Shown: piece by piece, positions 1 through 63,314 of the stretch
How positions within the stretch are numbered: the stretch's first letter is position 1
How the letters are laid out: each line of letters opens with the position of its first letter
NCBI GenBank assembly: GCA_016190925.1
Contig: JACPPQ010000109.1
Coordinates: 1,614-65,613, forward strand
Length of the DNA: 64,000 bases
Direction of reading: 5' to 3'
Source: Chloroflexota bacterium
GTDB lineage: Bacteria > Chloroflexota > Dehalococcoidia > Dehalococcoidales > JACPPQ01
Made by a program: the position numbers and the translations under genes
The notes under the pieces: generated by a model
Databases searched by the model: none
Seen by the model: only the letters and a program-made list of their open reading frames with translations
What the model was told of the DNA's origin: nothing

Positions 1-1076
1 CCCGGAAACATTTGTTTAACTGAAACCACCGGTATATTCACACCCCTGGCATCTTCCAATACCCAGACTGCTTCTATGCCGGGAACCATGCTTTCTAACT
101 CATTCCATAACAAGGCCACATGCCTGATGCATCCACCTGCTTGTGCGGAATCATTCATAACAGGCGGGCACCCTAGAATTATAGGGTCGTCCCTGTGAAG
201 CACGGTTTTTACCTTCAAAGCCGCTTCCATGCTGGAACCGCTGGCGTAATAACCTATCCATTCCGCAAATGGGCCTTCTTTTCTTGTTTCCACATCTGGC
301 GGCACAATCTCACCTTCCAGGGCTATTTCTGCAGTAGCCGGGATGGGGATGCCAGTAGAAGGTCCCCTGGTTACTTTGACAGGGTTTTGTCTTAACCATC
401 CGACATACTCGTATTCAGAACTTCCCCAGGGGATTTTAACCGAAGCGATTAAGAAAAGAAGAGGGTCCTGGCCGCAGGTAACAACCACCGGACAACTCTG
501 CCCCCGGTCCCAGTACTTCTGCCGTATTAACGCTCCGTGCTGGCCGGGTGCTATCCAGACCGTTGCGGTATCTTTATCATGGATTTGCACCCTGTACGTG
601 CCGAGGTTCACCCATCCATCATCGGGGTCTCTCATGATTACCGTGTCACCGGTGCCGATATATCTACCTCCATCGAGTGCATGCCACCTCGGGACGGGAA
701 ACTTGAATAAATCGATTTTGCTACCGGTAATAACATTCTCTTTAACCGGGGCATTGTCAACTTCAACCGGTGCAACTGGTACTACCCCATCTTTTAATTT
801 TTGGCGATAGTAGCTGACTACCTCCCGTTTGTTCTTCATCTCCGGGAAGCCCAACGCCAGAACGAGACGGCTGAGTTTGGGGAAGACGTTAGTGAGAACT
901 CTGTATCCTTTAGGATAGCCCTTGATGGAGTCAAACAGAAGCATGGGTGAATCCGGGACTGTGCCCATCACTTCGGCTATCGAGCCGATTTCCAACTCCC
1001 AGTCCGCGCCTTCAACAAGTTTGCACTCACCGAGTTCCTCAGTTTTTTTTATGAAGCTCCTCAAATCATCAATCAT
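1..1076 (-). CDS. UbiD-family (prFMN-type) decarboxylase/carboxylase, paralog 1; C-terminus runs off the left edge
   Basis: This ORF is absent from the ORF track because the window edge truncates it. My reverse-strand translation from the ATG at 1076..1074 gives MIDDLRSFIKKTEELGECKLVEGADWELEIGS... It contains DDGWVNLGTYR and EGPFAEWIGYYASG, motifs shared with the other UbiD-like ORFs here. Confidence 0.85.
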   Translation of the reverse strand, partial: MIDDLRSFIKKTEELGECKLVEGADWELEIGSIAEVMGTVPDSPMLLFDSIKGYPKGYRVLTNVFPKLSRLVLALGFPEMKNKREVVSYYRQKLKDGVVPVAPVEVDNAPVKENVITGSKIDLFKFPVPRWHALDGGRYIGTGDTVIMRDPDDGWVNLGTYRVQIHDKDTATVWIAPGQHGALIRQKYWDRGQSCPVVVTCGQDPLLFLIASVKIPWGSSEYEYVGWLRQNPVKVTRGPSTGIPIPATAEIALEGEIVPPDVETRKEGPFAEWIGYYASGSSMEAALKVKTVLHRDDPIILGCPPVMNDSAQAGGCIRHVALLWNELESMVPGIEAVWVLEDARGVNIPVVSVKQMFP

Positions 1077-1148
1077 AGTTGTGCTCTCCTGGTCTAAATT
1101 TTTTCGCTCATTTTGAGACTCTCAATGAAAAAGATGCTCTGTGCGCAG

Positions 1149-1323: not shown

Positions 1324-2643
1324 TTAACTCCCTTTGAACATGAGACTGGGAAGCCACAATGATAATTGGGGAAAAGCGAACATGAAAGCCATCGCTATCA
1401 AGTCGACATAGACAAACGGCAGGCCAGCTCGATAGACGTCCTGCATTGAATACTGCGGGGCTACACCCTTCATTACGAACAGGTTCAGGCCGAATGGGGG
1501 AGTAATTCCCGCTATTTCCAGATTAAGCAACGTTATCGCCCCGAACCATATCGGGTCGAAGCCCAGATTGCGAACAATAGGCATAAACATGGGTATGGTA
1601 ATCATCATTATGGGGACCTGGGACATGAACATGCCCATCACCAGTATAATGAGCTGCGTGATGATTATGATACCGATGGGGGATAGTGATAAATCAGAGA
1701 TGAATCCAGAAAGTCCCTTGCTGATGCCGGTAAAAACCAGGATTTGAGAGAAGACCTGTGCGCTGGTTAAAATAATAAGTACCATCGAGGTCATTTCAAT
1801 GGTTGTGAATAGCGCTCTTTTAATTTTCCCCCAATCAAGCTGCCTGTATAAGGCGGCTAAAAGCAGACTTCCAAGAGCACCCATGGCCGCTGCTTCGGTC
1901 GGTGTGGCAATGCCCAGGAATATAATTCCCAGAACCAAGAATACAATCAGTCCCAGCGGAAGGATGTAACGCACAGCGGCCATCAGTTTTTCTGAAAGTG
2001 GCAGGTCTGTCACCCGATAAGATGGCGCAATTTGTGGTTGGAGTTTGCATCTGGCGATAACATAAATTGCCATAAGAGCCGCTACCAGTAAGCCGGGTAC
2101 AACGATAGCCATGAAAAATTGCCCGATAGACATTTGTGCAAGAATCGCCAGGATAACTCCGAGACTGGTAGGTGGAATCAACATAGCCAGACCGCCGCTG
2201 CCTAAAATTGGTCCTAAGCACATTGGCTTTTGATAACCCCTTTTTTCCATCTCCGGAATAAGCGATGACCCCAGTAATGCCGTGCCACCCATGCTGGAGC
2301 CGCTCAAACAGGCGAACACAGTCCCACCGGCAATGGCAAGCAGCCCCAGTCTGCCTGGAAGACGCCCTATCCACATGTCCAGGGTATCTATCATGTTCCG
2401 CGCTACGCCGCTTACAAAAATCACCTCACCCATGAAGATGAAGAAAGCTACGGTTAAATAGGAAAAGTCACTTATAGAATCACGCAGGCTAAGAATAAGT
2501 TGGTTTAAACCCCTTTCGCCACCCCACAAAAGTAATGCGCCTATAATGCCAATAAGCATAAAACAAAAAACGGTCTCCAGCCCCAGCGCCATCAGGGCAA
2601 CCAGACCGCCAATCACAATCAAAGCGGCAAACTGCCATTCCAT
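1324..2643 (-). CDS. dctM: TRAP transporter large permease (DctM family)
   Basis: This is a 439-aa polytopic hydrophobic ORF. The motifs WIGRLPGRLGLLAIAGG and EKRGYQKPMCLGPILGSGGLAMLIPPS align by eye with the second DctM at 52170..53477. It starts 10 nt after dctQ. Confidence 0.9.
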   Translation of the reverse strand: MEWQFAALIVIGGLVALMALGLETVFCFMLIGIIGALLLWGGERGLNQLILSLRDSISDFSYLTVAFFIFMGEVIFVSGVARNMIDTLDMWIGRLPGRLGLLAIAGGTVFACLSGSSMGGTALLGSSLIPEMEKRGYQKPMCLGPILGSGGLAMLIPPTSLGVILAILAQMSIGQFFMAIVVPGLLVAALMAIYVIARCKLQPQIAPSYRVTDLPLSEKLMAAVRYILPLGLIVFLVLGIIFLGIATPTEAAAMGALGSLLLAALYRQLDWGKIKRALFTTIEMTSMVLIILTSAQVFSQILVFTGISKGLSGFISDLSLSPIGIIIITQLIILVMGMFMSQVPIMMITIPMFMPIVRNLGFDPIWFGAITLLNLEIAGITPPFGLNLFVMKGVAPQYSMQDVYRAGLPFVYVDLIAMAFMFAFPQLSLWLPSLMFKGS

Positions 2644-2653: not shown

Positions 2654-3169
2654 CTACCGCTGACTAAGGGGGACGCTCTTCAGGGTTGTTATACTTTGAT
2701 GTATTTTTCTCAGGCATTGTATCAATAGAAGGAGGTAGGCTACAGGAATAATCCAGAGGACGGTTGCGTTGGGAATATTGAGAAACGAGGGTTGGTAAAT
2801 ACCTCCACGCCAATGGTTCCAGGTGGTCTGGACGCCGTACCAGAAAATAATGCCGCAGATTACGACTCCGAGAAATGCATTAAAGATACCGAGCAGGAGC
2901 TGATAGTTTGGTTTTAAACGGAGAGGTAGCAGGTCCATCCTGACATGCTTTCCTTCCCTCATCAGCTTTGCTGCAGGTAACATCACCATGAAAAACAGTA
3001 GAATCTGGTTGATTTCTATTTGCCATCTTATTGGCCAGCCGAACATTCTGAGGATGACATCAATTCCGACAGTTAACATCGCAAAGGCAAGCAAAGCACT
3101 TGCGATAGTTACTGCGGTATTAAGTACCCGGTCGAAATTGGCTCTGATTTTGCTGGCTATCTCTGTCAT
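2654..3169 (-). CDS. dctQ: TRAP transporter small permease (DctQ family)
   Basis: This 171-aa ORF has about four hydrophobic segments and lies directly upstream of dctM. It is paralogous in size and position to 53483..54004. Confidence 0.8.
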   Translation of the reverse strand: MTEIASKIRANFDRVLNTAVTIASALLAFAMLTVGIDVILRMFGWPIRWQIEINQILLFFMVMLPAAKLMREGKHVRMDLLPLRLKPNYQLLLGIFNAFLGVVICGIIFWYGVQTTWNHWRGGIYQPSFLNIPNATVLWIIPVAYLLLLIQCLRKIHQSITTLKSVPLSQR

Positions 3170-3357: not shown

Positions 3358-3542
3358 TTTACGTTAAGTAAACGCTCTGCGCTCTTGGCGCAGGGTAAAA
3401 AAATACAGTTTTCCAAAAGGACGTCCGCCTCAGGTGGATGGCCGCACGTAGAGCTTGCCTGAGCCTGCCCTGAGAGAAGCCGAAGGGTACCTGATACGGG
3501 GGTCAATGCCCTGCCCGCCTCTGGCGGGCGGAATTGCTTTAC
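3358..3542 (+). repeat. Composite hairpin-mosaic repeat, copy 1 (ends in GGAATTGCTTTAC)
   Basis: This copy aligns by eye with 4904..5111, 33307..33484 and, for the 3' half only, 61244..61347. It contains the hairpins CTGCGC-n5-GCGCAG, CGTCCGCC-TCA-GGTGGATG and CCCGCC-TCT-GGCGGG. Confidence 0.85.
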
Positions 3543-3755: not shown

Positions 3756-4799
3756 TTACTTTACAAAGAGTTGTCTTAGTTTGTCGTAAGTTTGCTGATT
3801 GACATTCTTCTTCAAGACCGCCCACCTTGATTCGTAGGCAAGATTAAGATACGATTTTGTATCTTCAGGGGAGAAGGTGATAGGCTGCATGCCTTTTTCC
3901 ACTATTGTTTTCTTCGCGGCTTTGGCCAGATTGTCCGGCCGTGAAGGGTCTGCCTCCAATTTTGCTGCCTCATTCACCAGTATGTCTTGCAAGTTCTTTG
4001 GGAGCTTATTGAATCGGTCCATGTTTATATAGGTCGATGTATTAGTGTAGTAGAATGGGTAGTCAATCCAGTATTTGACCACTTCATACCATTTGTTCTG
4101 CACTGTCAGGTCGTAGGTCATAACATAGCCGTCAATCAGTTTGGTTTGCAGGCTGGTGTAAATGTCACCAAAACCTACATTGAGGGGGGTGACGCTCAGG
4201 GCATTTAAGAACGGGGTATAAGTCGGCGTGGTGCGCATCTTTAGCCCGGCTAACTCTTTGGGAGTCTTTACCTGGGGATTCAGGAATATGGAGAACATGG
4301 CCTCGGTGTTAGTGGCAATCATCCCCAGCAAGTATACCTTTGCCCTCTCCTTGAAAAGGTCGCGGATATAGGCATACCCGCCGGCCTGCCGATTTTCCCA
4401 CGATTTATACGAGGAGATAGAAATGGCCAAAGTCTCCGGCACAACATATTCCCATTCATCGGTGAAGCTGAAGAGCATATCGATTGTACCGGAACGCACT
4501 GCCTCAGTCTGGTTTGCTCTGGGGATAGCCTCCGGCCCGCCGACGATGTCAATAACAAGCTGCCCGTTAGACGCTTTCTTGACATTATCAACAAAATCAT
4601 CGGCGCTGAGCATCGTCGCTGTATGGGCGGGCAAAACGGTTACCGCTTTCAGCACTATCGGAGCCGCGGTTGGCGCGGGCGCAGGTGCTGGTTTTGGCGT
4701 GGCCGTGGGTGCCGGAGCCGGGGTTCGTGTACAGCCTGCCAGAACAAGCACCGCTGCCAGCGCTAAGGTCAGAATCAGGATTACAGTTTTCATTTTCAT
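3756..4799 (-). CDS. dctP: TRAP substrate-binding lipoprotein (DctP family) with a Pro/Ala/Thr linker
   Basis: The track ORF is 3756..4811. I prefer the ATG at 4799 (M5) because GGAGGGG lies 5 nt upstream of it. The protein has a signal peptide with lipobox VLAGC followed by TPAPAPTATPKPAPAPAPTAAP. The mature domain is DctP-like. Confidence 0.85.
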   Translation of the reverse strand: MKMKTVILILTLALAAVLVLAGCTRTPAPAPTATPKPAPAPAPTAAPIVLKAVTVLPAHTATMLSADDFVDNVKKASNGQLVIDIVGGPEAIPRANQTEAVRSGTIDMLFSFTDEWEYVVPETLAISISSYKSWENRQAGGYAYIRDLFKERAKVYLLGMIATNTEAMFSIFLNPQVKTPKELAGLKMRTTPTYTPFLNALSVTPLNVGFGDIYTSLQTKLIDGYVMTYDLTVQNKWYEVVKYWIDYPFYYTNTSTYINMDRFNKLPKNLQDILVNEAAKLEADPSRPDNLAKAAKKTIVEKGMQPITFSPEDTKSYLNLAYESRWAVLKKNVNQQTYDKLRQLFVK

Positions 4800-4903
4800 T
4801 TTCCCCTCCATGGTAATGAATTACTATTTCAAGTTGGCGTTTGCTATTGATTTCCGAATATCCCACCTCCTCCGAACAAATCTAACTTTTTCCAAGGTTA
4901 TTG

Positions 4904-5111
4904 TTTACGAAGTAAACGCCCTGCGGTCTCTGCCGCAGGGTTAAAATATATAGGGTTTCCAAAGGGACGTCCGCCTCAGGCGGATGGCTTGCCTCCGCTG
5001 AAGCTTTAGCGCAAGCAGGCCGCACGCAGAGCTTGCCCCGTTCACAGTTTGCCCCGTACCTGATACGGGGGTCAACGCCCTGCCCGCCTCTGGCGGGCGG
5101 AATTGCTTTAC
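4904..5111 (+). repeat. Composite hairpin-mosaic repeat, copy 2
   Basis: Its hairpins are CCCTGCGG-n6-CCGCAGGG, CGTCCGCC-TCA-GGCGGATG, CCCCGTA-cctga-TACGGGG and CCCGCC-TCT-GGCGGG. It ends in GGAATTGCTTTAC, and its last bases overlap the stop codon of the minus-strand gene 5108..5380. Confidence 0.85.
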
Positions 5112-5380
5112 AGGTACTTCTCTACGGGATTGGGAAGTTTTTCCAGAATCTTGATTCTCATGGGTTCAGGTATGATAGATTCGTCATAATCCTTCACCCA
5201 TAAAACATCACCTTCAGGTAGTTTGGCCGGGTCCCTGGAGAATTGAGCTTTAACATATATCCGCTCCAGGGTTTTGTGGTCTTTTATTTCGACGTTATTA
5301 ATCTGGAATATCTGCCTGTTCTCAAAGTCTGCCGCCTTTCCGCTATCACGGATGTCTATCATAGTGGCTTCCCATTCCAT
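5108..5380 (-). CDS. Small Cys-free protein (90 aa), paralog of 6953..7216; candidate UbiD accessory subunit
   Basis: It lies immediately downstream of UbiD-2 on the same strand. It shares the block VKAQFSRDPAKLPEGDVLWVK with VKAILSSKPGELPGGDTLWIR in the other small ORF. I recognise no known family. Confidence 0.6.
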   Translation of the reverse strand: MEWEATMIDIRDSGKAADFENRQIFQINNVEIKDHKTLERIYVKAQFSRDPAKLPEGDVLWVKDYDESIIPEPMRIKILEKLPNPVEKYL

Positions 5381-5450
5381 TCCTTATTACCTCTCCCTGG
5401 TGTTGTAATTACCATTAGCCTCAAAGCAAATAGCTGCCCCGATTGAAGAC

Positions 5451-6917
5451 TTATTTCAAACCGTACGAAGTCCAATTTTTCACTACTTTGTCCTGTAACT
5501 CTTTAGAATACATGGCTGCAAAGGTCACTTTGGGCGGTGCCGTAATTTCAAGCGGCCAGTCCAGAGGCCAGGTGGCGTCATAGACTATTTGTGGGCCTGT
5601 CTGGTCCATTCTTTCCTTCAAATCGGCGGAAGGTTGAAGCGGGCTGCCCTGCTGGTGATACACCCATATTCCCCGCTCCGGATGTACTTTTTCGACAAGG
5701 CTATTAATAACGTCATCTGTGTTAAAAACATCGGTATCTTCGTCACACACTAGAATTGCGTAGGAGTACAGGCCACCGGCAGCAGAGTATATAGCCGCTG
5801 CTACCCCCTGAGCCACCCTGGGTCTCCCTCTCTTGACGGACACTATGACCAGGTCAGCGACACCCGGATAGCAATGCACCTCTTTTACCGGCCAGCCAGC
5901 GTCAGTCAAAAGCTTTCGATAGAAAGCTGATTTTACAACAGGTGCGATTATGCCACCTTCGTCCCTGCCTCGGCCTACGCTGGCCATGGATAATATCGGG
6001 TTATTTCGCCAGGTTATGCACTTCACGACAAAAACGGGGCGCAGGTCTCTCGGCGAAGCCCTGAAGCCTGTATACTCGCCAAAGGGACCTTCGTACGCCC
6101 GCACATGCGGCGGAACTATACCTTCGATGACTATCTCGGAGGATGCGGGCACGTAAATGTCATTGGTTTCACATTTGACCAGTTCGAGAGGTTTCTTCCT
6201 CCAGCCTCCTACGGCATCAACCTCAGACATCTTTGCGGGAATGGGACTGGCCGCAGCAATGGCAGATAAGGGGTCGGGATTTATGGCAATGGCGCAGGGC
6301 ATTGGCTCGTTAGCATCCTCGTACTGTTGATAGAACATGTTGGGCCCGTGCTGTCCATAAACAAAAAGGCAACCCAGGCTTCTTCTATCGTGAATCATGT
6401 GCCGGTACATACCCCAGTTTACCCAATCACTATTCTTGTCCTTGGTAATGGTAGCGTGATAAGTGCACATATATCGGCCGCCATCGCCTTCATGTATCAT
6501 CGGCGCGGGAAAGGTATACAGGTTGCAATCATTTCCAAACGTTTTATTCTCTTTACAAGGGGCCTTCTTGACTACTACCGGTTTTATCGGATGTTCCAGC
6601 CCGGCAATATACAGGTCCTGTAGCTCCCGCCAGGTTGCCTTGTCAGGGTTCGGATGTCCAAAGATAATGGCCATGCGCTTCAGGTTACAGATGCTGGAGC
6701 TTATAATCGAATGACCGGGGTAGCCTTTAATGTTTTCAAAGAGCATAGCGGGTTGTCCACCGTGGTTGACGTTCTTTCCCTCACCGATTTCCAGGGCTCT
6801 GCGCGCAATGGCGCCAGCTTCCAGATTCCAGTCTACCTCTTTTTTTATCCTGGCAAGCTCTCCAGCCGCCTCCCAGTCAACTATCGCATCCCTGACGCTA
6901 TCGTGTGGGAATGGCAT
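5451..6917 (-). CDS. UbiD-family decarboxylase/carboxylase, paralog 2
   Basis: This 488-aa ORF has an AAGGAGAA ribosome-binding site. It carries the motifs DWVNWGMYRHM and EGPFGEYTGFRA, plus the typical N-terminal segment that contains GELARIKKEVDW. Confidence 0.9.
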   Translation of the reverse strand: MPFPHDSVRDAIVDWEAAGELARIKKEVDWNLEAGAIARRALEIGEGKNVNHGGQPAMLFENIKGYPGHSIISSSICNLKRMAIIFGHPNPDKATWRELQDLYIAGLEHPIKPVVVKKAPCKENKTFGNDCNLYTFPAPMIHEGDGGRYMCTYHATITKDKNSDWVNWGMYRHMIHDRRSLGCLFVYGQHGPNMFYQQYEDANEPMPCAIAINPDPLSAIAAASPIPAKMSEVDAVGGWRKKPLELVKCETNDIYVPASSEIVIEGIVPPHVRAYEGPFGEYTGFRASPRDLRPVFVVKCITWRNNPILSMASVGRGRDEGGIIAPVVKSAFYRKLLTDAGWPVKEVHCYPGVADLVIVSVKRGRPRVAQGVAAAIYSAAGGLYSYAILVCDEDTDVFNTDDVINSLVEKVHPERGIWVYHQQGSPLQPSADLKERMDQTGPQIVYDATWPLDWPLEITAPPKVTFAAMYSKELQDKVVKNWTSYGLK

Positions 6918-6952
6918 TTCTTCTCCTTTGTTGATTTACTTATTTTAGAAAC

Positions 6953-7216
6953 CTAATAATATTCTTTGCCTACCGCTTCTCCGAGTGAGCTGATGTCCTG
7001 GATTATTTTTATCGCCCAGGGTTGTGGATGTTTCTGACCTCTCTGCCACCGTATCCATAGCGTATCTCCGCCGGGCAATTCCCCAGGTTTGCTGCTCAGG
7101 ATTGCCTTAACCTGCCTGGTTTCTACAGTGGCCAGGTCACGTACGTTGACGATGGTTTCTACTCCCTCTTTCAATTCGCTGAAGTCCTTTATCAGGAAAA
7201 GTTCGTATTCCGGCAT
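6953..7216 (-). CDS. Small Cys-free protein (87 aa from M13), paralog of 5108..5380
   Basis: The track ORF is 6953..7252. The internal ATG at 7216 is preceded by AGGAAGGA with 7-nt spacing, so I prefer it. The gene lies 35 nt upstream of UbiD-2. Confidence 0.6.
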   Translation of the reverse strand: MPEYELFLIKDFSELKEGVETIVNVRDLATVETRQVKAILSSKPGELPGGDTLWIRWQRGQKHPQPWAIKIIQDISSLGEAVGKEYY

Positions 7217-7280
7217 GATGCATTCCTTCCTAAAAGTGGACAGGCAGTCCAAGATGACACTCTGACTTTCGGATATGAAT

Positions 7281-7564: not shown

Positions 7565-8770
7565 TTATCGGGCGCGCATTTTGCTCTGCTTCCACCTGAG
7601 GACAATCATTGCCACCGCAACGAAGAACATAAAACCTGCCATTAGTGCATAGCTTTGTTGGTAAGAACCGCTGATGTCCCTGACAAAGCCTGCCGAAGCC
7701 GGTCCGAGCAGTATTCCAAGGTTGAGACAGGTAGAGATAATGCCAAAGCCGAGGCCGAGCCTTTCCGGGCTGGTCGCTTCCGGTGGCAGTGCGAGAATCG
7801 GAGCGGGAACAAGGGTTTGTGCGGCCCCTATCAGGAGCATCAACCCGAGTATCCATCCTGTTGCCGAAGGAACAAATGGTATCAAAATTGCCAGCGTAAT
7901 GCCTCCCGAGGCGATTATTGCCTGCTTCTGGCCTATTCTGTCCATCAAATAACCTACCAACGGACTTAAGACCAGGGCCGGCCACATGACTGCGCTGGTA
8001 ATGAAACCGGCTTGGCTGGGGCTAATCCCGGCAGAGGTCAGCAGGTCTGGTGTGAATGTGAACAGGGAAATAACAGCGGCGTTGAACAAAAGCCAGGCAA
8101 TGCCGATAATCCAGATTGGCGCTCCGGTGCGCCTCAGACTCAAGAAAATGGTTTCTCGCGGAGGTGTGGCTTTCTGTATTTTTCGCGGCGCCGGTGCAAA
8201 GAGCAAGAGGAATATCAATACCGAAGCGGCCGGCAGGATGATGCTGACCCAAATGCTGGCTCGCCAGCCCAGGTTTGCTCCAAGTTGGGACAGGAAATTC
8301 AGCGACAGGATGGTTCCCAGGGGCATTCCGGTGCTGTACACGCCCATTGCAATGCCTATCTCGCGTCCGGCGAACCACTGCGCCAGCAGTTGGGGAGAAA
8401 TTATCATCAATGTTATAGCGCCTGCGCCGGATATTATTCTACCAAGTGCCAGTGTAGGAAATGAATTGCCAGTAGCCACGATTGCTATGCCTGTAATGAC
8501 CAGGATAAAAGAGGCCAGGCCTATTAACTTCTGTCCATAGCGGTCAGCAAGCATTCCTGCCGGAATGGAGATGGCTATCCCGGGCAACGCAAAAAGGCTC
8601 ATCAGCAGGCCGCCTTGTGCGTGGGACAGCTTAAGCTCCCGTATGATGAGGGTGAGAACAGGCGGCACCGCTTGCAGGGTGATGGCGAAGCTTAAGATGC
8701 AGAGATAAACGACACCCAGAATGGTCCATCTACGCTTTAGCTGGATGCCTGACAGTTCATTAGTAGTCAT
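7565..8770 (-). CDS. MFS transporter
   Basis: This 401-aa ORF has about 12 hydrophobic segments. The MFS loop motif GMLADRYGQK follows the second or third transmembrane segment. Confidence 0.85.
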   Translation of the reverse strand: MTTNELSGIQLKRRWTILGVVYLCILSFAITLQAVPPVLTLIIRELKLSHAQGGLLMSLFALPGIAISIPAGMLADRYGQKLIGLASFILVITGIAIVATGNSFPTLALGRIISGAGAITLMIISPQLLAQWFAGREIGIAMGVYSTGMPLGTILSLNFLSQLGANLGWRASIWVSIILPAASVLIFLLLFAPAPRKIQKATPPRETIFLSLRRTGAPIWIIGIAWLLFNAAVISLFTFTPDLLTSAGISPSQAGFITSAVMWPALVLSPLVGYLMDRIGQKQAIIASGGITLAILIPFVPSATGWILGLMLLIGAAQTLVPAPILALPPEATSPERLGLGFGIISTCLNLGILLGPASAGFVRDISGSYQQSYALMAGFMFFVAVAMIVLRWKQSKMRAR

Positions 8771-8909
8771 AAATTTGCCTTCGAGGTATATTACATCGAC
8801 TTTCTACTGCACGGCAAGCATTATTGTCTCAAAACCGGCATTTCGTTTAATAAAGCGATTCCAGGTGAAATCATTCATGACAGGCACACTTCATCTGATG
8901 TGAAAGTGG

Positions 8910-9017
8910 TGTAGGCAAAGTAAGGTGGGGAACAATGGTATTAACCCTACAATAATTTACGCCGATGTCTGGCAGATAATCAGTGGTCAAAGAGGTTACT
9001 TTAAGGTACTAAGCATT
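8910..9017 (+). promoter_or_regulatory. Conserved TGTAGG-box upstream element, copy b
   Basis: The sequence is TGTAGGCAAAGTAAGGTGGGGAACAATGGTATTAACCCTACAATAATTTACGCCGATGTCTGGCAGATAATCAGTGGTCAAAGAGGTTACTTTAAGGTACTAAGCATT. TGTAGG at 8910..8915 can pair with CCTACA at 8946..8951. Confidence 0.7.
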
Positions 9018-9094
9018 GGGAATATGAGATATTCTGGTCGGAATACCAGGCTGGATTATTATCCCAGGCAGAACAAAGGAAGGAGAATCGAGTT

Positions 9095-10279
9095 ATGAGA
9101 ACGAGAATAAGGACAATCCTCATCGCGTGTTTGGGACTGGTTGTAACGGGAGTGCTTCTGGCAGGGTGTGCCGCGCCAGCCCCAACTCCAACTCCCGCAC
9201 CCGCGCCCAAACCTGCGCCTACGACTGCACCGGCGCCAGCAACTACACCCAAACCTCCGGCACCTGCACCTCCGGCCACACCAAAACCCACTCCACCGCC
9301 AGCCCCGGCACCGGTAAGCGCAGCAGAGTTTTACCGGAATAATCCTGCAACTATTTATGTTGGCTATGGGGCTGGTGGTGGGGCCGACTATGCTACCCGC
9401 ACGTTCGCTTCTTTCTGGAAAGAGGTCACCGGCGGTACCATGGTGGCCAAGAATATGGAAGGTGCATCTGGGATGGCATTGGCCAATTGGATGTACAAAA
9501 CGGCCAAACCGGATGGTCTTACCATAGGGCTACTATATAGCGGCGCCTCTTTGACAGGCCCGGTGCTTTTCGCAAAGTCCGGTGTCGAGTTCGACCTGCA
9601 GAAATTCATATATATCGGCTCGTTTTATCAGGATATGCCCGGGCTTGCCATCAGCACTAAGCTGCCATATACCTCCCTGGATGAGTTGCGGAAAGTTAAA
9701 GGTCTGAAAATCGGGACTGTGGCGTTAAGAGACATAAACGCGCTGGCGGCAGCCCTGGCCATTGAGTTTCTTGGTCTGCAGGATGCCAGGATTGTTGCCG
9801 GCTACTCCGGTACGCCGGAGATGTTTCTGGCTGTGGGCAGGGGTGAGATAGATGCCGTTTCATATACCGCCGCTACAATTCTGCGTGAGCGTGGAGCCGG
9901 GACGGGATATTTTAAGCCAATATGGGTCGTGATGGCTGAGCAAAGGTCTCCGGCTTTCCCCGATGCACCAACGCTTGGCGAGTTAGTAAAGATCTCCCCA
10001 TCGGACGCACCATTGTTAGAACTCCTGTCAGCTATGGCATCGTATCCGGTAATCTTTGCCCCGCCAGGGGTACCCCAGGACCGGGTTGAATTTCTACGCG
10101 CTACTTTTGACAAAATGTTTTCCAATGAAACCTTTGTGCAACAGATGAAGAAGAATTTTCCGGTGTGGACTAAGCCTGTTAGCGGGGTAAACGAGACTAA
10201 AAACATTGAGCGTGTACTAAAGGTATCCAAGGTTGACATAGACAGAGGAAACGCTTTGATAGACAAATACTCACGCTGA
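9095..10279 (+). CDS. tctC: Tripartite tricarboxylate transporter substrate-binding lipoprotein (TctC/Bug family)
   Basis: This 394-aa ORF has lipobox LLAGC followed by a ~50-aa Pro/Ala/Thr linker. The mature part contains GYGAGGGADYATR...NMEGASGMALANW...KPDGLTIG, which is typical of Bug/TctC proteins. Confidence 0.85.
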   Translation: MRTRIRTILIACLGLVVTGVLLAGCAAPAPTPTPAPAPKPAPTTAPAPATTPKPPAPAPPATPKPTPPPAPAPVSAAEFYRNNPATIYVGYGAGGGADYATRTFASFWKEVTGGTMVAKNMEGASGMALANWMYKTAKPDGLTIGLLYSGASLTGPVLFAKSGVEFDLQKFIYIGSFYQDMPGLAISTKLPYTSLDELRKVKGLKIGTVALRDINALAAALAIEFLGLQDARIVAGYSGTPEMFLAVGRGEIDAVSYTAATILRERGAGTGYFKPIWVVMAEQRSPAFPDAPTLGELVKISPSDAPLLELLSAMASYPVIFAPPGVPQDRVEFLRATFDKMFSNETFVQQMKKNFPVWTKPVSGVNETKNIERVLKVSKVDIDRGNALIDKYSR

Positions 10280-10384
10280 CAACTAAGGCGTCTACTCCCG
10301 GCCGAAAGCATATCTTCTGAGTAAGGGGATGCCCTCGGTAAGATTGTCCAGGGCATCCCCTGGAGCAGGGTGAGGTAAGAGCGG

Positions 10385-11899
10385 ATGGCAGTAGAGGCTT
10401 TTCTTCAAGCCTTACAAAATTTCAGGGATTTAGACCTCCTTCTTTTCATGTTCGTCGGGTCAATTATCGGAATCGTATTTGGCCTTATTCCGGCTATTGG
10501 CAGTCTGACGGCGATGGCTCTCATTATACCCTTCACCTTCATGATGCCGCCGATGAATGCCATCCCCCTTTTGCTTGCGTTAACCAGCGGCGCCATTACT
10601 GCCGGCTCAATAACCTCTATTTTGCTCAATATCCCCGGAACGGGTGTCAATGTGGCAACTCTTATCGATGGTTTTCCGATGAACCAGAAAGGTCAAGCTG
10701 GACGTGCCTTAGGAGCAGCTCTGGTGAGTTCTGGAATGGGCGGGGTTTTTTCCGTATTTCTGGCCTTTGCCATAATACCGCTCGTATTGCCTATGGTGAT
10801 GGCGCTCCGTTCAGCAGATATGGTCTTCGTGATACTCTTGGGAATAACCTTTATCGGTGTTCTTGGGACAGGCTCCACACTCAAAGGTCTAATCAGCGGA
10901 GGAATCGGGCTGCTAATTTCTTTCATTGGATATCAAGCGTCAACAGGAGCGTCACGCTTCACCTTCGGAGCTAACTATCTGTATGATGGTATCCCCTTGC
11001 TCCCTGTGATTTTAGGCATATTCGGCTTGCCGGAAATGATTACTCTGGCAGCAAAAGGTGGCGCCATCGCTAAAGCAGGAGCCAACGTTAAAGGAGTGCG
11101 AGATATATTTGAAGGAGGGAAGGACGTATTTCGCCACTTTTTCTTGTGGATGCGTAGCACTATTTTAGGTTACATTATCGGCATCGTTCCGGGTGTGGGA
11201 GCGTCGGTAGCCCAGTTCGTAGCTTATGGGCAAGCACGGCAGACTTCAAGACATCCTCAGAAGTTCGGTACTGGCACTGTCGAAGGTGTTATTGCTCCGG
11301 AAAGCGCCAATAATGCGGTTCAGGGCGGGGCATTATTAACCATGCTGGCATTGGGTATACCGGGAAGCCCTGATACGGCGATTCTATTGGGCGCGTTACT
11401 ATTGATGAATGTTATACCCGGTCCACAAATGATGACCGCTCAGCTTGACCTATCGCTTACGCTTTTGTTAATCGTTATCGGCGCTAACATTATAGCTGCG
11501 AGCGTTTGTCTGATACTGGCACCAAATCTGGCTAAAGTAGCGTATATTCCTGGTCGTATTCTCGTTCCTTTGGTGATAGCAATAATATTCATCGGGGCTT
11601 ATGTTCATCGGGAGTCACTTAATGATGTGGTTGTAACCATCGCTTTCGGCATAGTTGGATTAGCGATGAGGAATTTTGGTTTTAGCAGACCCTCACTGTT
11701 ATTGGGCCTTATCCTGGGAACTCTGTTCGAGCACTATCTTTTCCTTGCGCTTGCAGCATCTGGCCCGCTATTCTTCGTGAGACCTATCAGCCTGGTTCTA
11801 ATTGTTATTAGTATAGCTGCTATTTTCCAGGGACAAATAAGAGGCCTGTTCGGAAATCGATTTAGAAGGCAAGCTAAGACGTATGAAACTAAAGGGTAG
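10385..11899 (+). CDS. tctA: Tripartite tricarboxylate transporter large permease (TctA family)
   Basis: This is a 504-aa polytopic ORF placed between tctC and a small four-helix ORF. Length and hydrophobic pattern fit TctA. Confidence 0.85.
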   Translation: MAVEAFLQALQNFRDLDLLLFMFVGSIIGIVFGLIPAIGSLTAMALIIPFTFMMPPMNAIPLLLALTSGAITAGSITSILLNIPGTGVNVATLIDGFPMNQKGQAGRALGAALVSSGMGGVFSVFLAFAIIPLVLPMVMALRSADMVFVILLGITFIGVLGTGSTLKGLISGGIGLLISFIGYQASTGASRFTFGANYLYDGIPLLPVILGIFGLPEMITLAAKGGAIAKAGANVKGVRDIFEGGKDVFRHFFLWMRSTILGYIIGIVPGVGASVAQFVAYGQARQTSRHPQKFGTGTVEGVIAPESANNAVQGGALLTMLALGIPGSPDTAILLGALLLMNVIPGPQMMTAQLDLSLTLLLIVIGANIIAASVCLILAPNLAKVAYIPGRILVPLVIAIIFIGAYVHRESLNDVVVTIAFGIVGLAMRNFGFSRPSLLLGLILGTLFEHYLFLALAASGPLFFVRPISLVLIVISIAAIFQGQIRGLFGNRFRRQAKTYETKG

Positions 11900-12426: not shown

Positions 12427-14037
12427 ATGGCATACTACAGGGACTTGAGAGAATACCTTAAAGTCCTGGAATCCAAAGGAAAGCTTGTCAGGATAAACCG
12501 GGAGATAAACAAGGATACCGAGCTTATGCCATTGGTCAGATGGCAATTTCGTGGGCTTCCAGAGGAGCAAAGGAAAGCCTTCATCTTCGATAATGTGAAA
12601 GATGCAAAGGGGAAAAAGTACGATATGCCGGTAGTGGTGGCCGCTCATGCTCCATCCAGAGAGGTCTACGCACTGGCCATGATGTGCGCGCCTGACAAGA
12701 TTATTGAGCGCTGGACGGAGGGCCAGCTTCATCCCATAGAACCTGTAGTGATAGAGAGCGGGCCAGTCCATGAGAATATTCATCAGGGTGACGAGCTTAT
12801 TACATGGGGTGGTCTGGGACACCTCCCGGTACCCATTTCAACGCCAGGATTCGATAACGCTCCTTATTTGACTTGCTCCAACTGGGTAAGCAAAGACCCG
12901 GACACTGGCATAAGGAACATGGGCATTTACCGGGGTATGTTGAAAAGCGCTACCAGGCTGGGGATACAGTGCGACCAGGGTAAGCATCTGCGCATACACT
13001 GGGAAAAGTGCCGGAACAAAGGGATTCCATTGCAGGTTGCGGTAGTTGTCGGGGCGAGCCCTAACCTGGGATTTGTTGGAGCGGCACATATACCGTACGG
13101 TGTGGATGAATTCGCAATCGCCGGTGGCCTCAGCGGAGAACCGATTAAGCTGGTAAAGTGCAAGACGGTGAACATCGAGGTCCCCGCTACGGCAGAGATA
13201 GTCATAGAGGGTGAAATGCCTACGGATTCTATGGAGAAAGAGGGACCCTTCGGAGAGTTCACCGGCTATATGGGAGCCGAGGGGGTCTACCCCTATTTCA
13301 ACGTCAAGTGCATTACGCATCGTAACGATGCAATTTACACGGCCTTTATCAGCCAATTTGCACCGAGCGAGAGCAGCAAGCTGAGGCAAATTTCCCAGGA
13401 AGGTGTCTGGTATAAGCTCCTGAAGCATGACTTGAATAATCCGGGCGTACTGAGATGTGCCTTTCACGAGAACGCCAGCGGGAGTTCCGCTGCCCTCCTT
13501 GTGATACAGCTCAAGAAAGCGCATCCCTTCGATGCATGGCATGCCCTGGACGGGGCGGCTGCCTTCACCCAGAGCTGGCCCAGGATAATAATAGCGGTTG
13601 ACGAAGACATCGACCCGGAGGATGCTGATTCGGTGAACTGGGCGCTCAGCTTCAGGATGGAACCACATAGAGATTTGCGCGTGGTTCAGGGGAAAGCCTA
13701 TAACCTGGACCAGGCGAGCAATCCGCCATGGACACCCCAGGCAGAAAGGTTTTACCCATCGCCGAACGGAAGCTCGGTCTTGTTGATAGATGCCACCAGA
13801 AAGTGGCCGTACCGGCCGGTTTCACTGCCCGCCAGGAAATTCATGGAAAGGGCAAAGCAAATCTGGGAAGAAGAAAAGCTTCCCAGGCTAATCCCACGGT
13901 CTCCCTGGTTTGGCTACTCACTGGGACAGTGGACTGATGAGAACAAGGAAGAGGCCGAGCTGGCCCTTAATGAAGAACACTACCAGACAGGCGAAAAGAT
14001 AGCCAGGCAAAGGACTCAGCTTGGCAACTCTGAATAA
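12427..14037 (+). CDS. UbiD-family decarboxylase/carboxylase, paralog 3 (long C-terminal tail)
   Basis: This 536-aa ORF has an AAGGAG ribosome-binding site. The N-terminus reads MAYYRDLREYLKVLESKGKL, and the motifs GIRNMGIYRGM and EGPFGEFTGYMG are present. Confidence 0.9.
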   Translation: MAYYRDLREYLKVLESKGKLVRINREINKDTELMPLVRWQFRGLPEEQRKAFIFDNVKDAKGKKYDMPVVVAAHAPSREVYALAMMCAPDKIIERWTEGQLHPIEPVVIESGPVHENIHQGDELITWGGLGHLPVPISTPGFDNAPYLTCSNWVSKDPDTGIRNMGIYRGMLKSATRLGIQCDQGKHLRIHWEKCRNKGIPLQVAVVVGASPNLGFVGAAHIPYGVDEFAIAGGLSGEPIKLVKCKTVNIEVPATAEIVIEGEMPTDSMEKEGPFGEFTGYMGAEGVYPYFNVKCITHRNDAIYTAFISQFAPSESSKLRQISQEGVWYKLLKHDLNNPGVLRCAFHENASGSSAALLVIQLKKAHPFDAWHALDGAAAFTQSWPRIIIAVDEDIDPEDADSVNWALSFRMEPHRDLRVVQGKAYNLDQASNPPWTPQAERFYPSPNGSSVLLIDATRKWPYRPVSLPARKFMERAKQIWEEEKLPRLIPRSPWFGYSLGQWTDENKEEAELALNEEHYQTGEKIARQRTQLGNSE

Positions 14038-20709: not shown

Positions 20710-22146
20710 GTGGGCACGGAATACAGGGACTTGAGGGAATGGCTCTCGAAAGTCGAGGAAATTGGAGAGCTCAGGCGGGGCAAATCCCTTACCGTAGAAG
20801 AAGACGCCGGCAGGGTAGCGGAGATATTGCCCGCCCTGGAAAACGGACCGGCGGTTATTCTGGATGAGTTAGTAGGGTACGAGCCCGGTTACCGAATCCT
20901 GCTTAATCTCTTCGGCAGCACTCGCAGGATAGCCCTGTCATTTGGATTTCCTATTGACTCGGATAGAAAATCGCTGCTTCAGCACTTTGAAAAGAAACTC
21001 GAAAAGATCGAGCTTATAAAACCAGCCTATGTCGAAACAGGCCCCATATTAGAAAACCGGCTGGTAGGGGATGATGTGAATCTTGACCGGTTTCCTGTTC
21101 CTCTGTGGCATAAGCACGATGGAGGTCCCTACATTGGAACAGGATGCGCGGTGGTTACGCAAGACCCTGACGACGGTTGGGTTAATTTGGGGACCTACAG
21201 AAACCAGCTCTTCGATAAGAAAACGGTGGGATTCTATATCACTTCGGCGGGGCAGGGAAGGGTTCATCGGGAAAAGTACTTCAGTCGCGGAAAACCATGC
21301 CCGGTGGCCGTTGTTTTCGGGATGGACCCTTTGCTATTTACCGGGGGTATGACTGACATTCCTCCAGGCATCTGTGAATATGATTGGGTCGGAGGTTGGC
21401 AAGGCAGGCCGGTGCAGGTTATCAAGGGACCTGTAACCGGTCTTCCGGTTCCTGCTAATGCTGAAATTGTAATCGAAGGTTTCTCTTATCCGGGAAAAAA
21501 CCGGCTCGAAGGCCCTTTCGGTGAGTCGAGGGGATATTATGCATCAGGCGCAAGCGAAGCACCTTACATCGAAGCTCAGGCCCTTTACTTCAGGAATGAA
21601 CCTATTCTTCTGGGAATGCCGTCCCAAAAACCGCCCTACGATGCAGACAAAGCTAGGCAGTATATGAAATCTGCGCTACTGAAACAACAGTTGAAGCAGT
21701 TCGGTATCCCGGGAATAACGGATGTATGGTGCTATGGAGAAGGTAGCTGCAGGCTTTTTGTGGTAGTCGCTATAAAGCAGCAGTATCCCGGACATTCCCG
21801 ACAGGCAGGTCATGCGGTTTATGCCAGCCGCGTAATCACTTACGGGCGCTATGTAATAGTGGTCGATGACGATATCGATGTTGCCGATATCAAAGATGTG
21901 CTGTGGGCTATTACAACCCGTTCTAGCCCGGCAACCTCGGTAGACATCATACACAAAGCGAGGTCATTTCAGTTAGACCCGCTAATCTCGCCTGAGGACC
22001 GGGCGGCAGGCCGATATTATGATTCTCGCGCCATCATCGATGCCACAAAGCCATTCGAATGGAAAGACCAGTTTCCTTTACCCGTACAGACAGACCAGGA
22101 GTACAGGCGGGAAACCAGAAAAAAGTTTGATTATCTTTTTAAATAG
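20710..22146 (+). CDS. UbiD-family decarboxylase/carboxylase, paralog 4
   Basis: This 478-aa ORF has a GTG start 2 nt after the previous stop. The motifs DDGWVNLGTYRNQ and EGPFGESRGYYASG are present. It is a close paralog of 59000..60439. Confidence 0.9.
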   Translation: MGTEYRDLREWLSKVEEIGELRRGKSLTVEEDAGRVAEILPALENGPAVILDELVGYEPGYRILLNLFGSTRRIALSFGFPIDSDRKSLLQHFEKKLEKIELIKPAYVETGPILENRLVGDDVNLDRFPVPLWHKHDGGPYIGTGCAVVTQDPDDGWVNLGTYRNQLFDKKTVGFYITSAGQGRVHREKYFSRGKPCPVAVVFGMDPLLFTGGMTDIPPGICEYDWVGGWQGRPVQVIKGPVTGLPVPANAEIVIEGFSYPGKNRLEGPFGESRGYYASGASEAPYIEAQALYFRNEPILLGMPSQKPPYDADKARQYMKSALLKQQLKQFGIPGITDVWCYGEGSCRLFVVVAIKQQYPGHSRQAGHAVYASRVITYGRYVIVVDDDIDVADIKDVLWAITTRSSPATSVDIIHKARSFQLDPLISPEDRAAGRYYDSRAIIDATKPFEWKDQFPLPVQTDQEYRRETRKKFDYLFK

Positions 22147-22167: not shown

Positions 22168-22950
22168 ATGGTTAATGTGAAGATATTGGGGATTTCGACC
22201 AGTGTCCGGCATGCTAATACCGAGATTGCCGTCAAGTGGGCAATGGAATCGGCGGCTGAATTGCCGGGAGTGGAGACTGAATTCGTATCGTTGGCAGGAA
22301 AGACCATATATCCCTGTAACAACTGCTATCGGTGTCTGAATTCCGAGGCGGATAACCCCTGCCCTGCCTATGACGATGATTTTAGGGAAATATGTCTCAA
22401 GATGATAGAACCAGATGGGATTATTGTAGGAGCTAATGTTGATTTTCAGACGGCTGGCGTGCTCTTTCACATTTTTAAGTCAAGGCTGATGTCTCTGGAA
22501 ATGAACAGAAAAGTTGGGCCTGAGGCTCTCCGGAACAAGGTATTTGGCTGTATTGCCGTGGGTGGCTCCCCTTATAACGGTATCAACACCGCACAACAAT
22601 ATATGATAATGTGGGCAATACAGAATGATATGCACGTGGTTGGCTGCGGCCCTGATAAAGGCATTACCTGTGGAGGCTTCCTTGGAGCGGGTGGGGCAAC
22701 TTTCCTCGTTAAAGGTTGTGCCAGAATATTCCGGGGGCGCGGGCCGCTCCTGCCCAACACGCCAGCAGAAAAGGAGGCCATAAAAGAGGATGAGGCGTGC
22801 TTCCTCCAGTGCCAGGCCCTGGGTAAAAGGGTCGCAGAAACAGCCAAGGTGATAAAGGCAGGCTTTGATACGGTACCGCCAGAGGAGATGCACTGGCAGA
22901 AGGGTCCGGTTAAGATTGGAGGATACGACTTCGGGCAGAAACAACGCTAA
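22168..22950 (+). CDS. Isf-like iron-sulfur flavoprotein (NADPH-dependent FMN reductase fold), paralog 1
   Basis: This 260-aa ORF begins KILGISTSVRHANTE, a flavodoxin-like start. It carries the Cys motif CNNCYRC-x8-C. The C-terminal block GKRVAETAKVIKAGF is shared with 30116..30913 and 48721..49506. Confidence 0.6.
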   Translation: MVNVKILGISTSVRHANTEIAVKWAMESAAELPGVETEFVSLAGKTIYPCNNCYRCLNSEADNPCPAYDDDFREICLKMIEPDGIIVGANVDFQTAGVLFHIFKSRLMSLEMNRKVGPEALRNKVFGCIAVGGSPYNGINTAQQYMIMWAIQNDMHVVGCGPDKGITCGGFLGAGGATFLVKGCARIFRGRGPLLPNTPAEKEAIKEDEACFLQCQALGKRVAETAKVIKAGFDTVPPEEMHWQKGPVKIGGYDFGQKQR

Positions 22951-30115: not shown

Positions 30116-30913
30116 ATGGTGAAGGTCAAGCTGCTGGGTGTTGCTACCAGTGCACGGCATGGTAATACGGAGATAGCAGTAAACTGGGCGCTTGAATCGG
30201 CACGCGAACTACCGGGAGTGGAAACAGAGTTCGTCTCACTCTCAGGGAAAGTGATTCGTTCTTGCCTCGATTGCACCGGGCGAGGAGGTCATCTGTGCAC
30301 TGGTGCTCCCAAGGATAATCCCTGTCCAAGGATACCGGATGACGACTTCAGAGAGATATGCCTCAAGATGGTGCAGCCTGACATAGATGGGTATATCATG
30401 GGTGCCACGGTTGATTTTCAGCAGGCAGGGGCAGCCTGGCATTGTCTTAAATCCCGTCTTGTATGTCTGGAGCACAATCAGTGGGGACCCGAGGCGTTAA
30501 GATGCAGGGTTTTTGGTGCAATTGCCATAGGAGCGGTACCCTACGGCGGCCAGAGCACTGCGTTAGAGCAGATGGTAATCTGGGCACACCAGACCGATAT
30601 GTACGTGGTAGGTTGTGGCCCGGAGCCCGGTGCGGCCTGTGGTGGTTACATCGGGGCCAGTGGAGCAACATGCCGGAGCGCTGCAACCGGTCGGATTTTC
30701 CGTAACCGCGAGCCGCTAAAGCTCGGTAGCAGGGAGGAGAAGCAAGCCATTCTGGAAGATAAGGCATGCCTGAAGCAATGCCAGAACCTGGGCAAGAGGG
30801 TTGCTGAAACTGCCAAGGTCATAAAGAATGGCTATAGTACGCTATCGCCGGAAGAGCTGCGCTGGCCCAAGGGTCCCATCCCAACCGGCGGATATGAGTT
30901 TGCCCATGAGTAA
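30116..30913 (+). CDS. Isf-like iron-sulfur flavoprotein, paralog 2
   Basis: This 265-aa ORF is collinear with 22168..22950 (MVKVKLLGVATSARHGNTEIAVNWALESARELPGVETEFVSL..., GKRVAETAKVIKNGY). Its Cys motif is the variant CLDC-x7-C-x8-C. Confidence 0.6.
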   Translation: MVKVKLLGVATSARHGNTEIAVNWALESARELPGVETEFVSLSGKVIRSCLDCTGRGGHLCTGAPKDNPCPRIPDDDFREICLKMVQPDIDGYIMGATVDFQQAGAAWHCLKSRLVCLEHNQWGPEALRCRVFGAIAIGAVPYGGQSTALEQMVIWAHQTDMYVVGCGPEPGAACGGYIGASGATCRSAATGRIFRNREPLKLGSREEKQAILEDKACLKQCQNLGKRVAETAKVIKNGYSTLSPEELRWPKGPIPTGGYEFAHE

Positions 30914-33306: not shown

Positions 33307-33484
33307 TTTACGTTAAGTAAACGCCCTGCGCCAAGAGCGCAGGGTAAAAAATATACAGGGTTTCCAAAGGGACGTCCGCCTCAGGCGGATGGCCGCACGC
33401 AGAGCTTGCCCCGTTCACAGCCTGCCCCGTACCTGATACGGGGGTCAATGCCCTGCCCGCCTCTGGCGGGCGGAATTGCTTTAC
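33307..33484 (+). repeat. Composite hairpin-mosaic repeat, copy 3
   Basis: Its hairpins are CCCTGCGC-caaga-GCGCAGGG, CGTCCGCC-TCA-GGCGGATG, CCCCGTA-cctga-TACGGGG and CCCGCC-TCT-GGCGGG, ending in GGAATTGCTTTAC. By eye it is almost identical to copy 2 over the 3' part. Confidence 0.85.
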
Positions 33485-46345: not shown

Positions 46346-46347
46346 AC

Positions 46348-48720: not shown

Positions 48721-49506
48721 ATGACAGTCAGAATTCTTGGTATTTCGGGAAGTCCTCGGCATGGGAACACTGAAATCGCTCTCAAAGAGGCCTTGGCTGG
48801 CGCCGCCGAAGTAAAGGACGTAGAAACGGAGCTGTATAGCATTGTCGGTAAAACGCTAAACCCGTGTACCGGGTGCTTTAAGTGCGGGACTGAAGAAGCT
48901 ACTCCGGAAATTCCCTGTCCGCAGTGGGGAGATGATGACATCACCAAACTGGTCAGAAGAATGAGGGACGATTTTGATGGGTTCGTGATTGGCAACCCGG
49001 TGTATATCGGTACCATCTCTGCCCAGATTAAAATGATTTTCGACAGGGCAATCATGATGACCGAGGGCGGCAGGCTGGGTCCCGTAACTCTAAGAAACAA
49101 GGTCTGCGGTGTTGTGATTAGCTCCTGGGACAGGAACGGAGGACATGATTTAGCCGCAATCGATACCTGGAGATGGGCTATTCTCCACGACATGATAGTG
49201 GTCGGTGTAGGACCGGAGAGAATAGATTGTAACAACTATTGGGCAGGATGTGTGGTTCAGGCCTATACTCCCAATCATCCCGACGGTGGCAAAGGAATCT
49301 GGTGGGCCAAGGCTAATTCGTTAGAGGAGCGGACCGCGGTCAAGTTTGATACACTGGGGCTCGCTCAATGCCGGAACACCGGCCGGCGAGTGGCAGAGTT
49401 GGCCAAAGTAATCAAGGCTGGCTTCGACAGTCTTAGCCGGGAGGATACCTACTGGCCGCGCGGCGGATGCGGAGGTTTTGAAGGGACAGCCTGGGGCAGC
49501 AAATAG
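48721..49506 (+). CDS. Isf-like iron-sulfur flavoprotein, paralog 3
   Basis: This 261-aa ORF begins RILGISGSPRHGNTE. It carries CTGCFKC-x10-C and GNPVYIGTISAQIKMIFDR, plus the shared C-terminal block GRRVAELAKVIKAGF. Confidence 0.65.
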   Translation: MTVRILGISGSPRHGNTEIALKEALAGAAEVKDVETELYSIVGKTLNPCTGCFKCGTEEATPEIPCPQWGDDDITKLVRRMRDDFDGFVIGNPVYIGTISAQIKMIFDRAIMMTEGGRLGPVTLRNKVCGVVISSWDRNGGHDLAAIDTWRWAILHDMIVVGVGPERIDCNNYWAGCVVQAYTPNHPDGGKGIWWAKANSLEERTAVKFDTLGLAQCRNTGRRVAELAKVIKAGFDSLSREDTYWPRGGCGGFEGTAWGSK

Positions 49507-63150: not shown

Positions 63151-63314
63151 CTCTTAGGGTGAGGGTAATATTCTTCCAAATTAGTGCCACAAAAAGACAT
63201 CTATTTTGGACAAGCGTAATTTGGAGATTCGGAATTTATTTTGATTTTCAAAGAGCTATTCAAAGCTTTGTCCAGGCGATAAATATACACCATTCTTAAA
63301 GATGGGGAAAAACT

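Follow-up and report, generated by a model that had tools for sequence, protein, structure and literature searches.

A and B, two small proteins whose genes flank that of the UbiD-family enzyme UbiD-2, are by sequence two branches of the superfamily of PpcC, the 10-kDa gamma subunit of the phenylphosphate carboxylase PpcABCD, and the A branch is missed by current family libraries. The three genes lie in a window of 64,000 nucleotides from a Chloroflexota bacterium of the order Dehalococcoidales (assembly GCA_016190925.1, contig JACPPQ010000109.1, positions 1,614 to 65,613). Sequence, and analogy with better known enzymes, make it reasonably probable, if well short of certain, that A and B are anciently duplicated PpcC-superfamily partners of UbiD-2, a PpcA-like enzyme that would use prenylated flavin mononucleotide (prFMN) to carboxylate or decarboxylate an imported aromatic acid.

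The trio is transcribed on the minus strand in the order B, UbiD-2, A:

7216..6953, minus strand: B, 87 amino acids from its ATG, first gene of the trio, PpcC/gamma-like
6917..5451, minus strand: UbiD-2, 488 amino acids, PpcA-like prFMN-dependent (de)carboxylase
5380..5108, minus strand: A, 90 amino acids, last gene of the trio, divergent gamma-prime paralogue

B and UbiD-2 are separated by 35 nucleotides (6918-6952) and UbiD-2 and A by 70 (5381-5450), so that the positions and same-strand gaps given in the first-pass annotation, made from the letters of the DNA, are correct, the strand being minus for all three. The program-made list of open reading frames (ORFs) prolonged B to a TTG at 7252; as every B homologue begins with MAEYELF, the ATG at 7216 is taken as the start. 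Purine-rich runs resembling Shine-Dalgarno (SD) sequences precede all three starts. Neither A nor B has a cysteine, as had also been noticed, and several A orthologues have one, none having more.

The family of A and B

On sequence evidence A and B are true paralogues, with a similarity well past chance. BLASTP aligns them with 36 % identity over 55 amino acids (E 5e-11), and when all six frames of the window (1148 segments) were scanned with profile hidden Markov models (HMMs), the A-type HMM found B at E 6e-12 and the B-type HMM found A at E 1.3e-12. Compared as families by hhalign, they match with 98.9 % probability (E 1.5e-17, 67 columns), and aligned residues extend from the N-terminal M-EW/EY-E through to the C-terminal (D/E/K)Y(Y/L). 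The homology perceived at first from a shared core is thus upheld by all three kinds of comparison. The six-frame scan also agrees with the claim that the other six UbiDs of the window have no similar small ORF beside them, as it detected no further PpcC-like ORF near any of them. One candidate, at 60757-60927 on the minus strand, upstream of the UbiD gene at 59000-60439, was discarded as noise: the match covers 29 residues and its E value went from 0.009 to 0.87 with the superfamily HMM.

The family of the pair is where the first-pass annotation has to be revised. It had called the family unknown, had proposed a new pair of subunits, and had listed the small subunit of phenylphosphate carboxylase as a separate precedent, when A and B in fact belong with that very subunit. 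B matches the Pfam family of PpcC, PF09662 (Phenyl_P_gamma), at 25.6 bits over profile positions 3-76 of 83 (E 1.4e-5), a borderline pass of the gathering score of 25.0; it matches NCBIfam TIGR02725 at 25.9 bits and does not reach the equivalog cut-off of 135.55. A has no match in Pfam even at E<=10 and none in NCBIfam, TIGR02725 included. The NCBI records carry the names 'phenylphosphate carboxylase subunit gamma' for B and 'hypothetical protein' for A.

A profile built from A and B together and run in an exhaustive HMMER search of 1.84e9 representatives gathered 284 clusters at E<=1e-3, mostly 77-150 amino acids long, though a few are long proteins that contain repeats; A-type proper amounts to only ~4 of the clusters at 50 % identity. 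When 130 superfamily members were scanned against Pfam, 54 matched PF09662 and 0 any other family. It is because of these clusters, the Pfam scan, the PF09662 match of B and the hhalign result that A and B are placed as branches of one PpcC superfamily. A neighbour-joining tree recovers the A clade in 198 of 200 bootstraps and the B clade in 134 of 200, the latter adjoining canonical PpcC-like sequences. AlphaFold2 models of the two proteins (mean predicted local distance difference test, pLDDT, 79 for A and 82 for B) have a common order of five strands followed by a C-terminal helix. Of the searches that had been suggested as checks, those with profiles paid off, connecting A to B and the PpcC family, and Foldseek on the predicted models, like searches by sequence, gave no relative of A or B in the PDB.

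Two other kinds of small UbiD companion were considered and rejected. VdcD, which is under 10 kDa, is an obligatory allosteric subunit or activator bound to each VdcC monomer (PMC8379154), and as VdcD/BsdD of VdcCD (vanillate / 4-hydroxybenzoate decarboxylase) it resembles what is proposed for A and B, a small subunit of an oligomer encoded beside its UbiD. VdcD, however, is a four-Cys zinc ribbon with two CxxC, in contrast to the Cys-free A and B, for which a fold of five strands is predicted, and VdcD has no sequence similarity to PpcGamma, as PMC8379154 also states, nor to A or B. Membership of the VdcD type is ruled out by the absent Cys residues and CxxC knuckles, as the first reading of the DNA had judged. 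The prFMNH2-binding chaperone LpdD (PF21758) is, like A and B, small and encoded near UbiD genes; membership of that type is ruled out too, PF21758 having no match in A, in B or in any of the 130 superfamily members (0/130).

Recurrence of the gene trio

The order B-UbiD-A is found in at least six other contig lineages (in the labels L001-L030 given to the related contig loci compared: L002/L004, L006, L019, L023/L024/L028, L027 and L029), the B gene being cut by the contig end in L019 and L029. With a permuted form, A'-163 aa ORF-B-UbiD, in Desulfatiglans TRIP_1 (L008) and Desulfobacteraceae UBA5623 (L009), both of the Desulfobacterota, this answers positively the suggestion that conservation of the triad be looked for in other genomes. 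The trio is followed by dctPQM in L002/L004 and by a TAXI-type binding protein gene in L006, and the UbiD of L027 is 49 % identical to UbiD-2, the lowest value among the UbiD orthologues of trio loci. UbiD-A is also seen in L001, L025 and L030, where the upstream part is missing; in L001 dctPQM come after the trio genes, and a second UbiD gene, on the opposite strand, and a gene for a UbiX-like flavoprotein adjoin dctM. The UbiDs of L012-L016 are more distant, and each has one canonical-looking PpcC gene after it.

Within the A clade and the B clade of the tree the subgroups mirror each other by locus and match the UbiD identities, and because the locus groups are parallel in all three, the sequences point to an old duplication that was followed by joint inheritance of both copies with UbiD. 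That one of the small ORFs is instead a decaying duplicate, or untranslated, is very hard to credit. A does lack any library annotation and is named only as a hypothetical protein; yet both ORFs are intact, of full length and conserved at the protein level (A homologues at 44-66 % identity, the 20 B homologues at 43-79 %) in contigs attributed to two phyla, SD-like sequences stand upstream of both, and it is the A-like genes that are the more constant partner across the loci sampled. The two ORFs are accordingly what they had been supposed to be, real, conserved, paralogous and tightly linked to UbiD-2.

Several loci have peculiarities of their own. L021 (593-7225) and L022 have the order UbiX-like flavoprotein, two flavin adenine dinucleotide (FAD) amine-oxidase-like genes, UbiD, A-like gene and LpdD_chaperone (PF21758), the UbiD being 54 % identical to UbiD-2, and so present two different kinds of UbiD accessory protein, A-like and LpdD_chaperone, side by side. 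L011, from a Dehalococcoidia metagenome-assembled genome, has at 681-1509 two tandem PpcC-like ORFs of ~100 and ~140 amino acids between two UbiD genes, the second with a charged C-terminal tail. The 163-aa ORF of L008 (5479-5970), between the A'-like and the B-like gene, has no Pfam match; genes for DUF1302 and DUF1329 proteins (8094-10865) come after the UbiD gene of that locus and genes for FAD oxidases are upstream. The A-like gene of L005 (7815-8381) stops after 13 residues and runs into an N stretch; L005 looks like an assembly artefact duplicating L006, both being from GCA_964348255.1. A search of genome contigs with an A-type pattern gave no match, which reflects the limit of the pattern method, since L008 and L009 there carry an A'-like gene.

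UbiD-2 and the enzyme proposed

UbiD-2 has all three Pfam domains of its family, UbiD, UbiD_N and UbiD_C (PF01977, PF20695 and PF20696; 212, 59 and 55 bits), and in NCBIfam it scores highest on TIGR02723 (phenyl_P_alpha), with 357 bits where the equivalog cut-off is 564.6. The motifs that bear the catalytic Arg and Glu residues are kept, as VNWGMYR (N-x-G-x-Y-R) and YEGPFGEYTGF (E-G-P-F-G-E), and the nearest solved relatives are Fdc1 and PA0254/HudA (~200 bits). Downstream of the trio and on the same strand are three genes of a tripartite ATP-independent periplasmic (TRAP) transporter, and then a second UbiD gene:

3756..4811, minus strand: DctP, TRAP solute-binding lipoprotein (PF03480)
2654..3169, minus strand: DctQ, TRAP small membrane subunit (PF04290)
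1324..2643, minus strand: DctM, TRAP large membrane subunit (PF06808)
3..1121, minus strand: UbiD-1, PpcB-like, cut by the window edge, directly after dctM

Transporters of the TRAP family import carboxylates. The nearest solved relative of DctP is 4mnc/4mni (101 bits), which we take to be a binder of an aromatic 2-oxo acid, a lead only.

Most likely A and B, small, beta-rich and of ~10 kDa, would bind to UbiD-2 as partner subunits with no catalytic role of their own, so that the enzyme would be alpha-gamma-gamma-prime; by analogy with PpcABC, both would belong to the active oligomer itself and would not act as transient factors. The TRAP importer would bring in a (hetero)aromatic acid for the UbiD-2 enzyme to decarboxylate. 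A TRAP importer follows, and the ORFs scanned yielded no gene for PpcD or phenylphosphate synthase (Pps); for these reasons the enzyme is probably a decarboxylase of such an acid and not a phenylphosphate carboxylase serving phenol metabolism. A heteromeric complex of A, B and UbiD-2 is a reasonable expectation from the biochemistry of PpcC. It is a bolder step, and one that we hold to be possible while thinking it likelier to be wrong, to see in the UbiD-2 clade a separate, minimal heterotrimeric class of prFMN enzyme, in which two PpcC paralogues, evolving together, would sit at non-equivalent sites of one UbiD and tune domain motion or access of the substrate, the A type would be a more fundamental partner than canonical PpcC, and the enzyme, coupled to the TRAP importer, would decarboxylate an aromatic acid that has so far been assigned to no UbiD.

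Some considerations weigh against the assignment of A and B as partners of an acid-decarboxylating UbiD-2. B barely clears the gathering score of PF09662 and is far under the equivalog cut-off of TIGR02725. Pairing is not obligate, with only an A-like gene in L017/L018, L020 and L021/L022, and only a B-like one in L010. The physical association of A and B with UbiD-2, like their translation, is something we infer, and both the substrate of UbiD-2 and the direction of its reaction are guesses from the transporter context alone. The biochemical role of PpcC is itself unknown, as are those of other small UbiD partners (PMC8379154, PMC10865409), and neither sequence nor fold search found a solved structure of the PpcC family.

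Taken at its face, the NCBI name of B would make the locus that of a genuine phenylphosphate carboxylase, at work in the anaerobic degradation of phenol. B does match both PF09662 and TIGR02725, and UbiD-2 scores best on phenyl_P_alpha. Nevertheless the equivalog cut-offs are far from met (25.9 against 135.55 bits and 357 against 564.6 bits), the TRAP carboxylate importer located with the trio is something that phenol does not need, and neither a PpcD phosphatase of haloacid dehalogenase (HAD) type nor a phenylphosphate synthase of the phosphoenolpyruvate (PEP)-utilising type was found among the ~50 window ORFs scanned. On the grounds of the cut-offs and of PpcD and Pps not being found in the ORFs scanned, this identity was rejected as very improbable.

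The presence of UbiD-1 in the same minus-strand gene string raises another arrangement, in which the transporter genes interrupt a core of PpcABC type: the alpha-like UbiD-2 and the beta-like UbiD-1 would form a hetero-oligomer, with one gamma paralogue for each UbiD. UbiD-1, whose catalytic motif is the variant EGPFAE, scores highest in NCBIfam on TIGR02724 (phenyl_P_beta; 228 bits against a cut-off of 468.95, for a fragment of 373 aa), which complements the phenyl_P_alpha match of UbiD-2. The second UbiD and the UbiX-like flavoprotein beside dctM in L001, and the two small ORFs between two UbiDs in L011, are also in its favor. Several features go the other way. In L002 the gene after dctM is for an old yellow enzyme and not for a UbiD, so that adjacency of UbiD-1 to dctM is not kept there; the second UbiD of L001 is on the opposite strand; and none was found in L006, L008, L023 and L027 in the ~2 to 6 kb beside the trio that their sequences covered. 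Two more UbiDs of the window score best on phenyl_P_beta with no gamma gene nearby, and for that reason likeness to phenyl_P_beta is the generic label for the clade. We regard the split core as unlikely, and the membership of UbiD-1 in the enzyme as uncertain, though it is possibly, by its sequence, a second catalytic subunit that forms an alpha/beta pair with UbiD-2.

The preferred assignment of A and B as integral subunits has also to be set against a role for one or both as transient maturation factors, prFMN delivery or insertion chaperones in the manner of LpdD, that would not be stoichiometric components. Small UbiD accessory genes can indeed encode chaperones (PMC10865409, for LpdD), A and B are not obligately paired among their relatives, and no UbiX gene (PF02441) was found among the window ORFs scanned. 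However, as said, PF21758 matches neither A, nor B, nor the 130 superfamily members; in L021/L022 a separate LpdD_chaperone gene comes directly after the A-like gene, from which it follows that the roles are not redundant; and PpcC itself belongs to an alpha-beta-gamma set with CO2-exchange activity (PMC6114531). Such a function for A or B is considered improbable, and none of the four alternatives is supported as well as partnership of A and B with UbiD-2.

Comparison with the systems in which PpcC-like proteins are known brings out both the kinship and the distance. According to PMC6114531 it is the alpha, beta and gamma subunits of Thauera aromatica (54, 53 and 10 kDa) that jointly exchange CO2 with 4-hydroxybenzoate, the delta phosphatase being required for carboxylation of phenylphosphate. 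PpcC (PF09662, TIGR02725), the gamma of PpcABCD in Thauera aromatica and Aromatoleum, is like A and B small, encoded beside a PpcA-like UbiD and devoid of a cysteine-based metal site, and its homology to them is detectable, for B at the Pfam threshold and for A by profile-profile comparison. In PpcABCD, though, one gamma goes with an alpha/beta pair of UbiDs, whereas the trio has two paralogues and one adjacent UbiD, scores far under the equivalog cut-off, lacks PpcD and Pps as far as the window was scanned and has a TRAP importer attached.

In N47, NaphS2 and Desulfatiglans TRIP_1, the clusters for naphthalene carboxylase and putative phenanthrene carboxylase likewise combine a PpcA-like UbiD with a PpcC-like small gene, the alpha-gamma gene pair of the N47 naphthalene carboxylase cluster being N47_K27540 and N47_K27530 (PMC6849830), and several small 'conserved hypothetical' ORFs are interleaved with their UbiD genes (PMC6849830, PMC12016498). 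These clusters differ in having 3-4 UbiD paralogues, MRP/ParA ATPases and HAD hydrolases, and a complex of ~750 kDa (PMC12016498), where here there is a three-gene module and a transporter. TRIP_1 itself carries A'-x-B-UbiD (L008), with FAD oxidases, a short-chain dehydrogenase/reductase (SDR), DUF1302 and DUF1329 as neighbors, which are different from those of the two published candidate phenanthrene carboxylase clusters.

That UbiDs occur with PpcC-like small genes in Ppc operons and in naphthalene and putative phenanthrene carboxylase clusters is already known. What appears to be new, and is described in none of the papers searched, is a minimal, conserved module in which one PpcA-like UbiD is accompanied by two gamma paralogues inherited together with it, the recognition of the 'hypothetical' A-type protein as a paralogue of PpcC, and the link of the module to TRAP transporters. 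The role of the PpcC gamma has been unexplained since 2004, and the naphthalene and putative phenanthrene carboxylase clusters, themselves poorly understood, contain PpcC-like genes too. A compact module of three genes, one for a UbiD and two for gamma paralogues, would pose far fewer difficulties for expression and structure determination than PpcABCD or the naphthalene carboxylase of 750 kDa and could reveal what gamma subunits do. Its main value lies in offering a tractable model for the gamma subunit and in the caution that it prompts about ppcC as a marker of phenol degradation. For annotation, there is a clade, the A type, that Pfam and NCBIfam overlook and that is labelled 'hypothetical'. 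The ppcC gene serves in metagenome surveys as a marker for anaerobic phenol degradation (PMC8854433), and it can mislead, since here the UbiDs with PpcC-like genes beside them are probably enzymes other than phenylphosphate carboxylases.

Other features of the window

UbiD homologues number seven in the window, two of them cut by its edges. Besides UbiD-1 and UbiD-2 the homologue search gave five further paralogues:

12427-14037: UbiD paralogue
20710-22146: UbiD paralogue
59000-60439: UbiD paralogue
61411-62844: UbiD paralogue
63300-63998: UbiD paralogue

A gene for a major facilitator superfamily (MFS) transporter is upstream of the trio. Between the trio and the TRAP genes is a hairpin-rich intergenic repeat, a second copy of which comes after dctP, so that the two flank that gene:

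4910..5111: hairpin-rich intergenic repeat of ~180 nucleotides, abutting the stop codon of A, with repeat families D1, D2, D4 and D5
3366-3542: second copy of the ~180-nucleotide repeat, after dctP

Its GC-rich hairpin core of 29 nucleotides has a third, identical copy at 33451-33479, where 0 are expected by chance. By sequence the repeat looks like an element of repetitive extragenic palindromic (REP) type or of miniature inverted-repeat transposable element (MITE) type, and it may influence how stable the transcript is in the stretch that joins the trio to the TRAP genes.

DctP (3756-4811) and the TctC protein encoded at 9095-10279 each have a lipoprotein-like N-terminus followed by a long linker rich in Pro, Ala and Thr, which would be in keeping with binding proteins anchored to the membrane by a tether. 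The island that the window covers is also rich in transporters, hydantoinase-like enzymes, isochorismatases, flavin reductases and aldehyde:ferredoxin oxidoreductases. Three FMN_red proteins of ~260 amino acids are encoded at 22168-22950, 30116-30913 and 48721-49506. The aldehyde:ferredoxin oxidoreductases are three paralogues (43477-45288, 46324-48228 and 50236-52116) whose genes are interleaved with those for ferredoxins and for two DAP_DH_C-type dehydrogenases, and their block adjoins one with a class-III aminotransferase, FAD oxidases and acyl-CoA mutase / CoA ligase genes.

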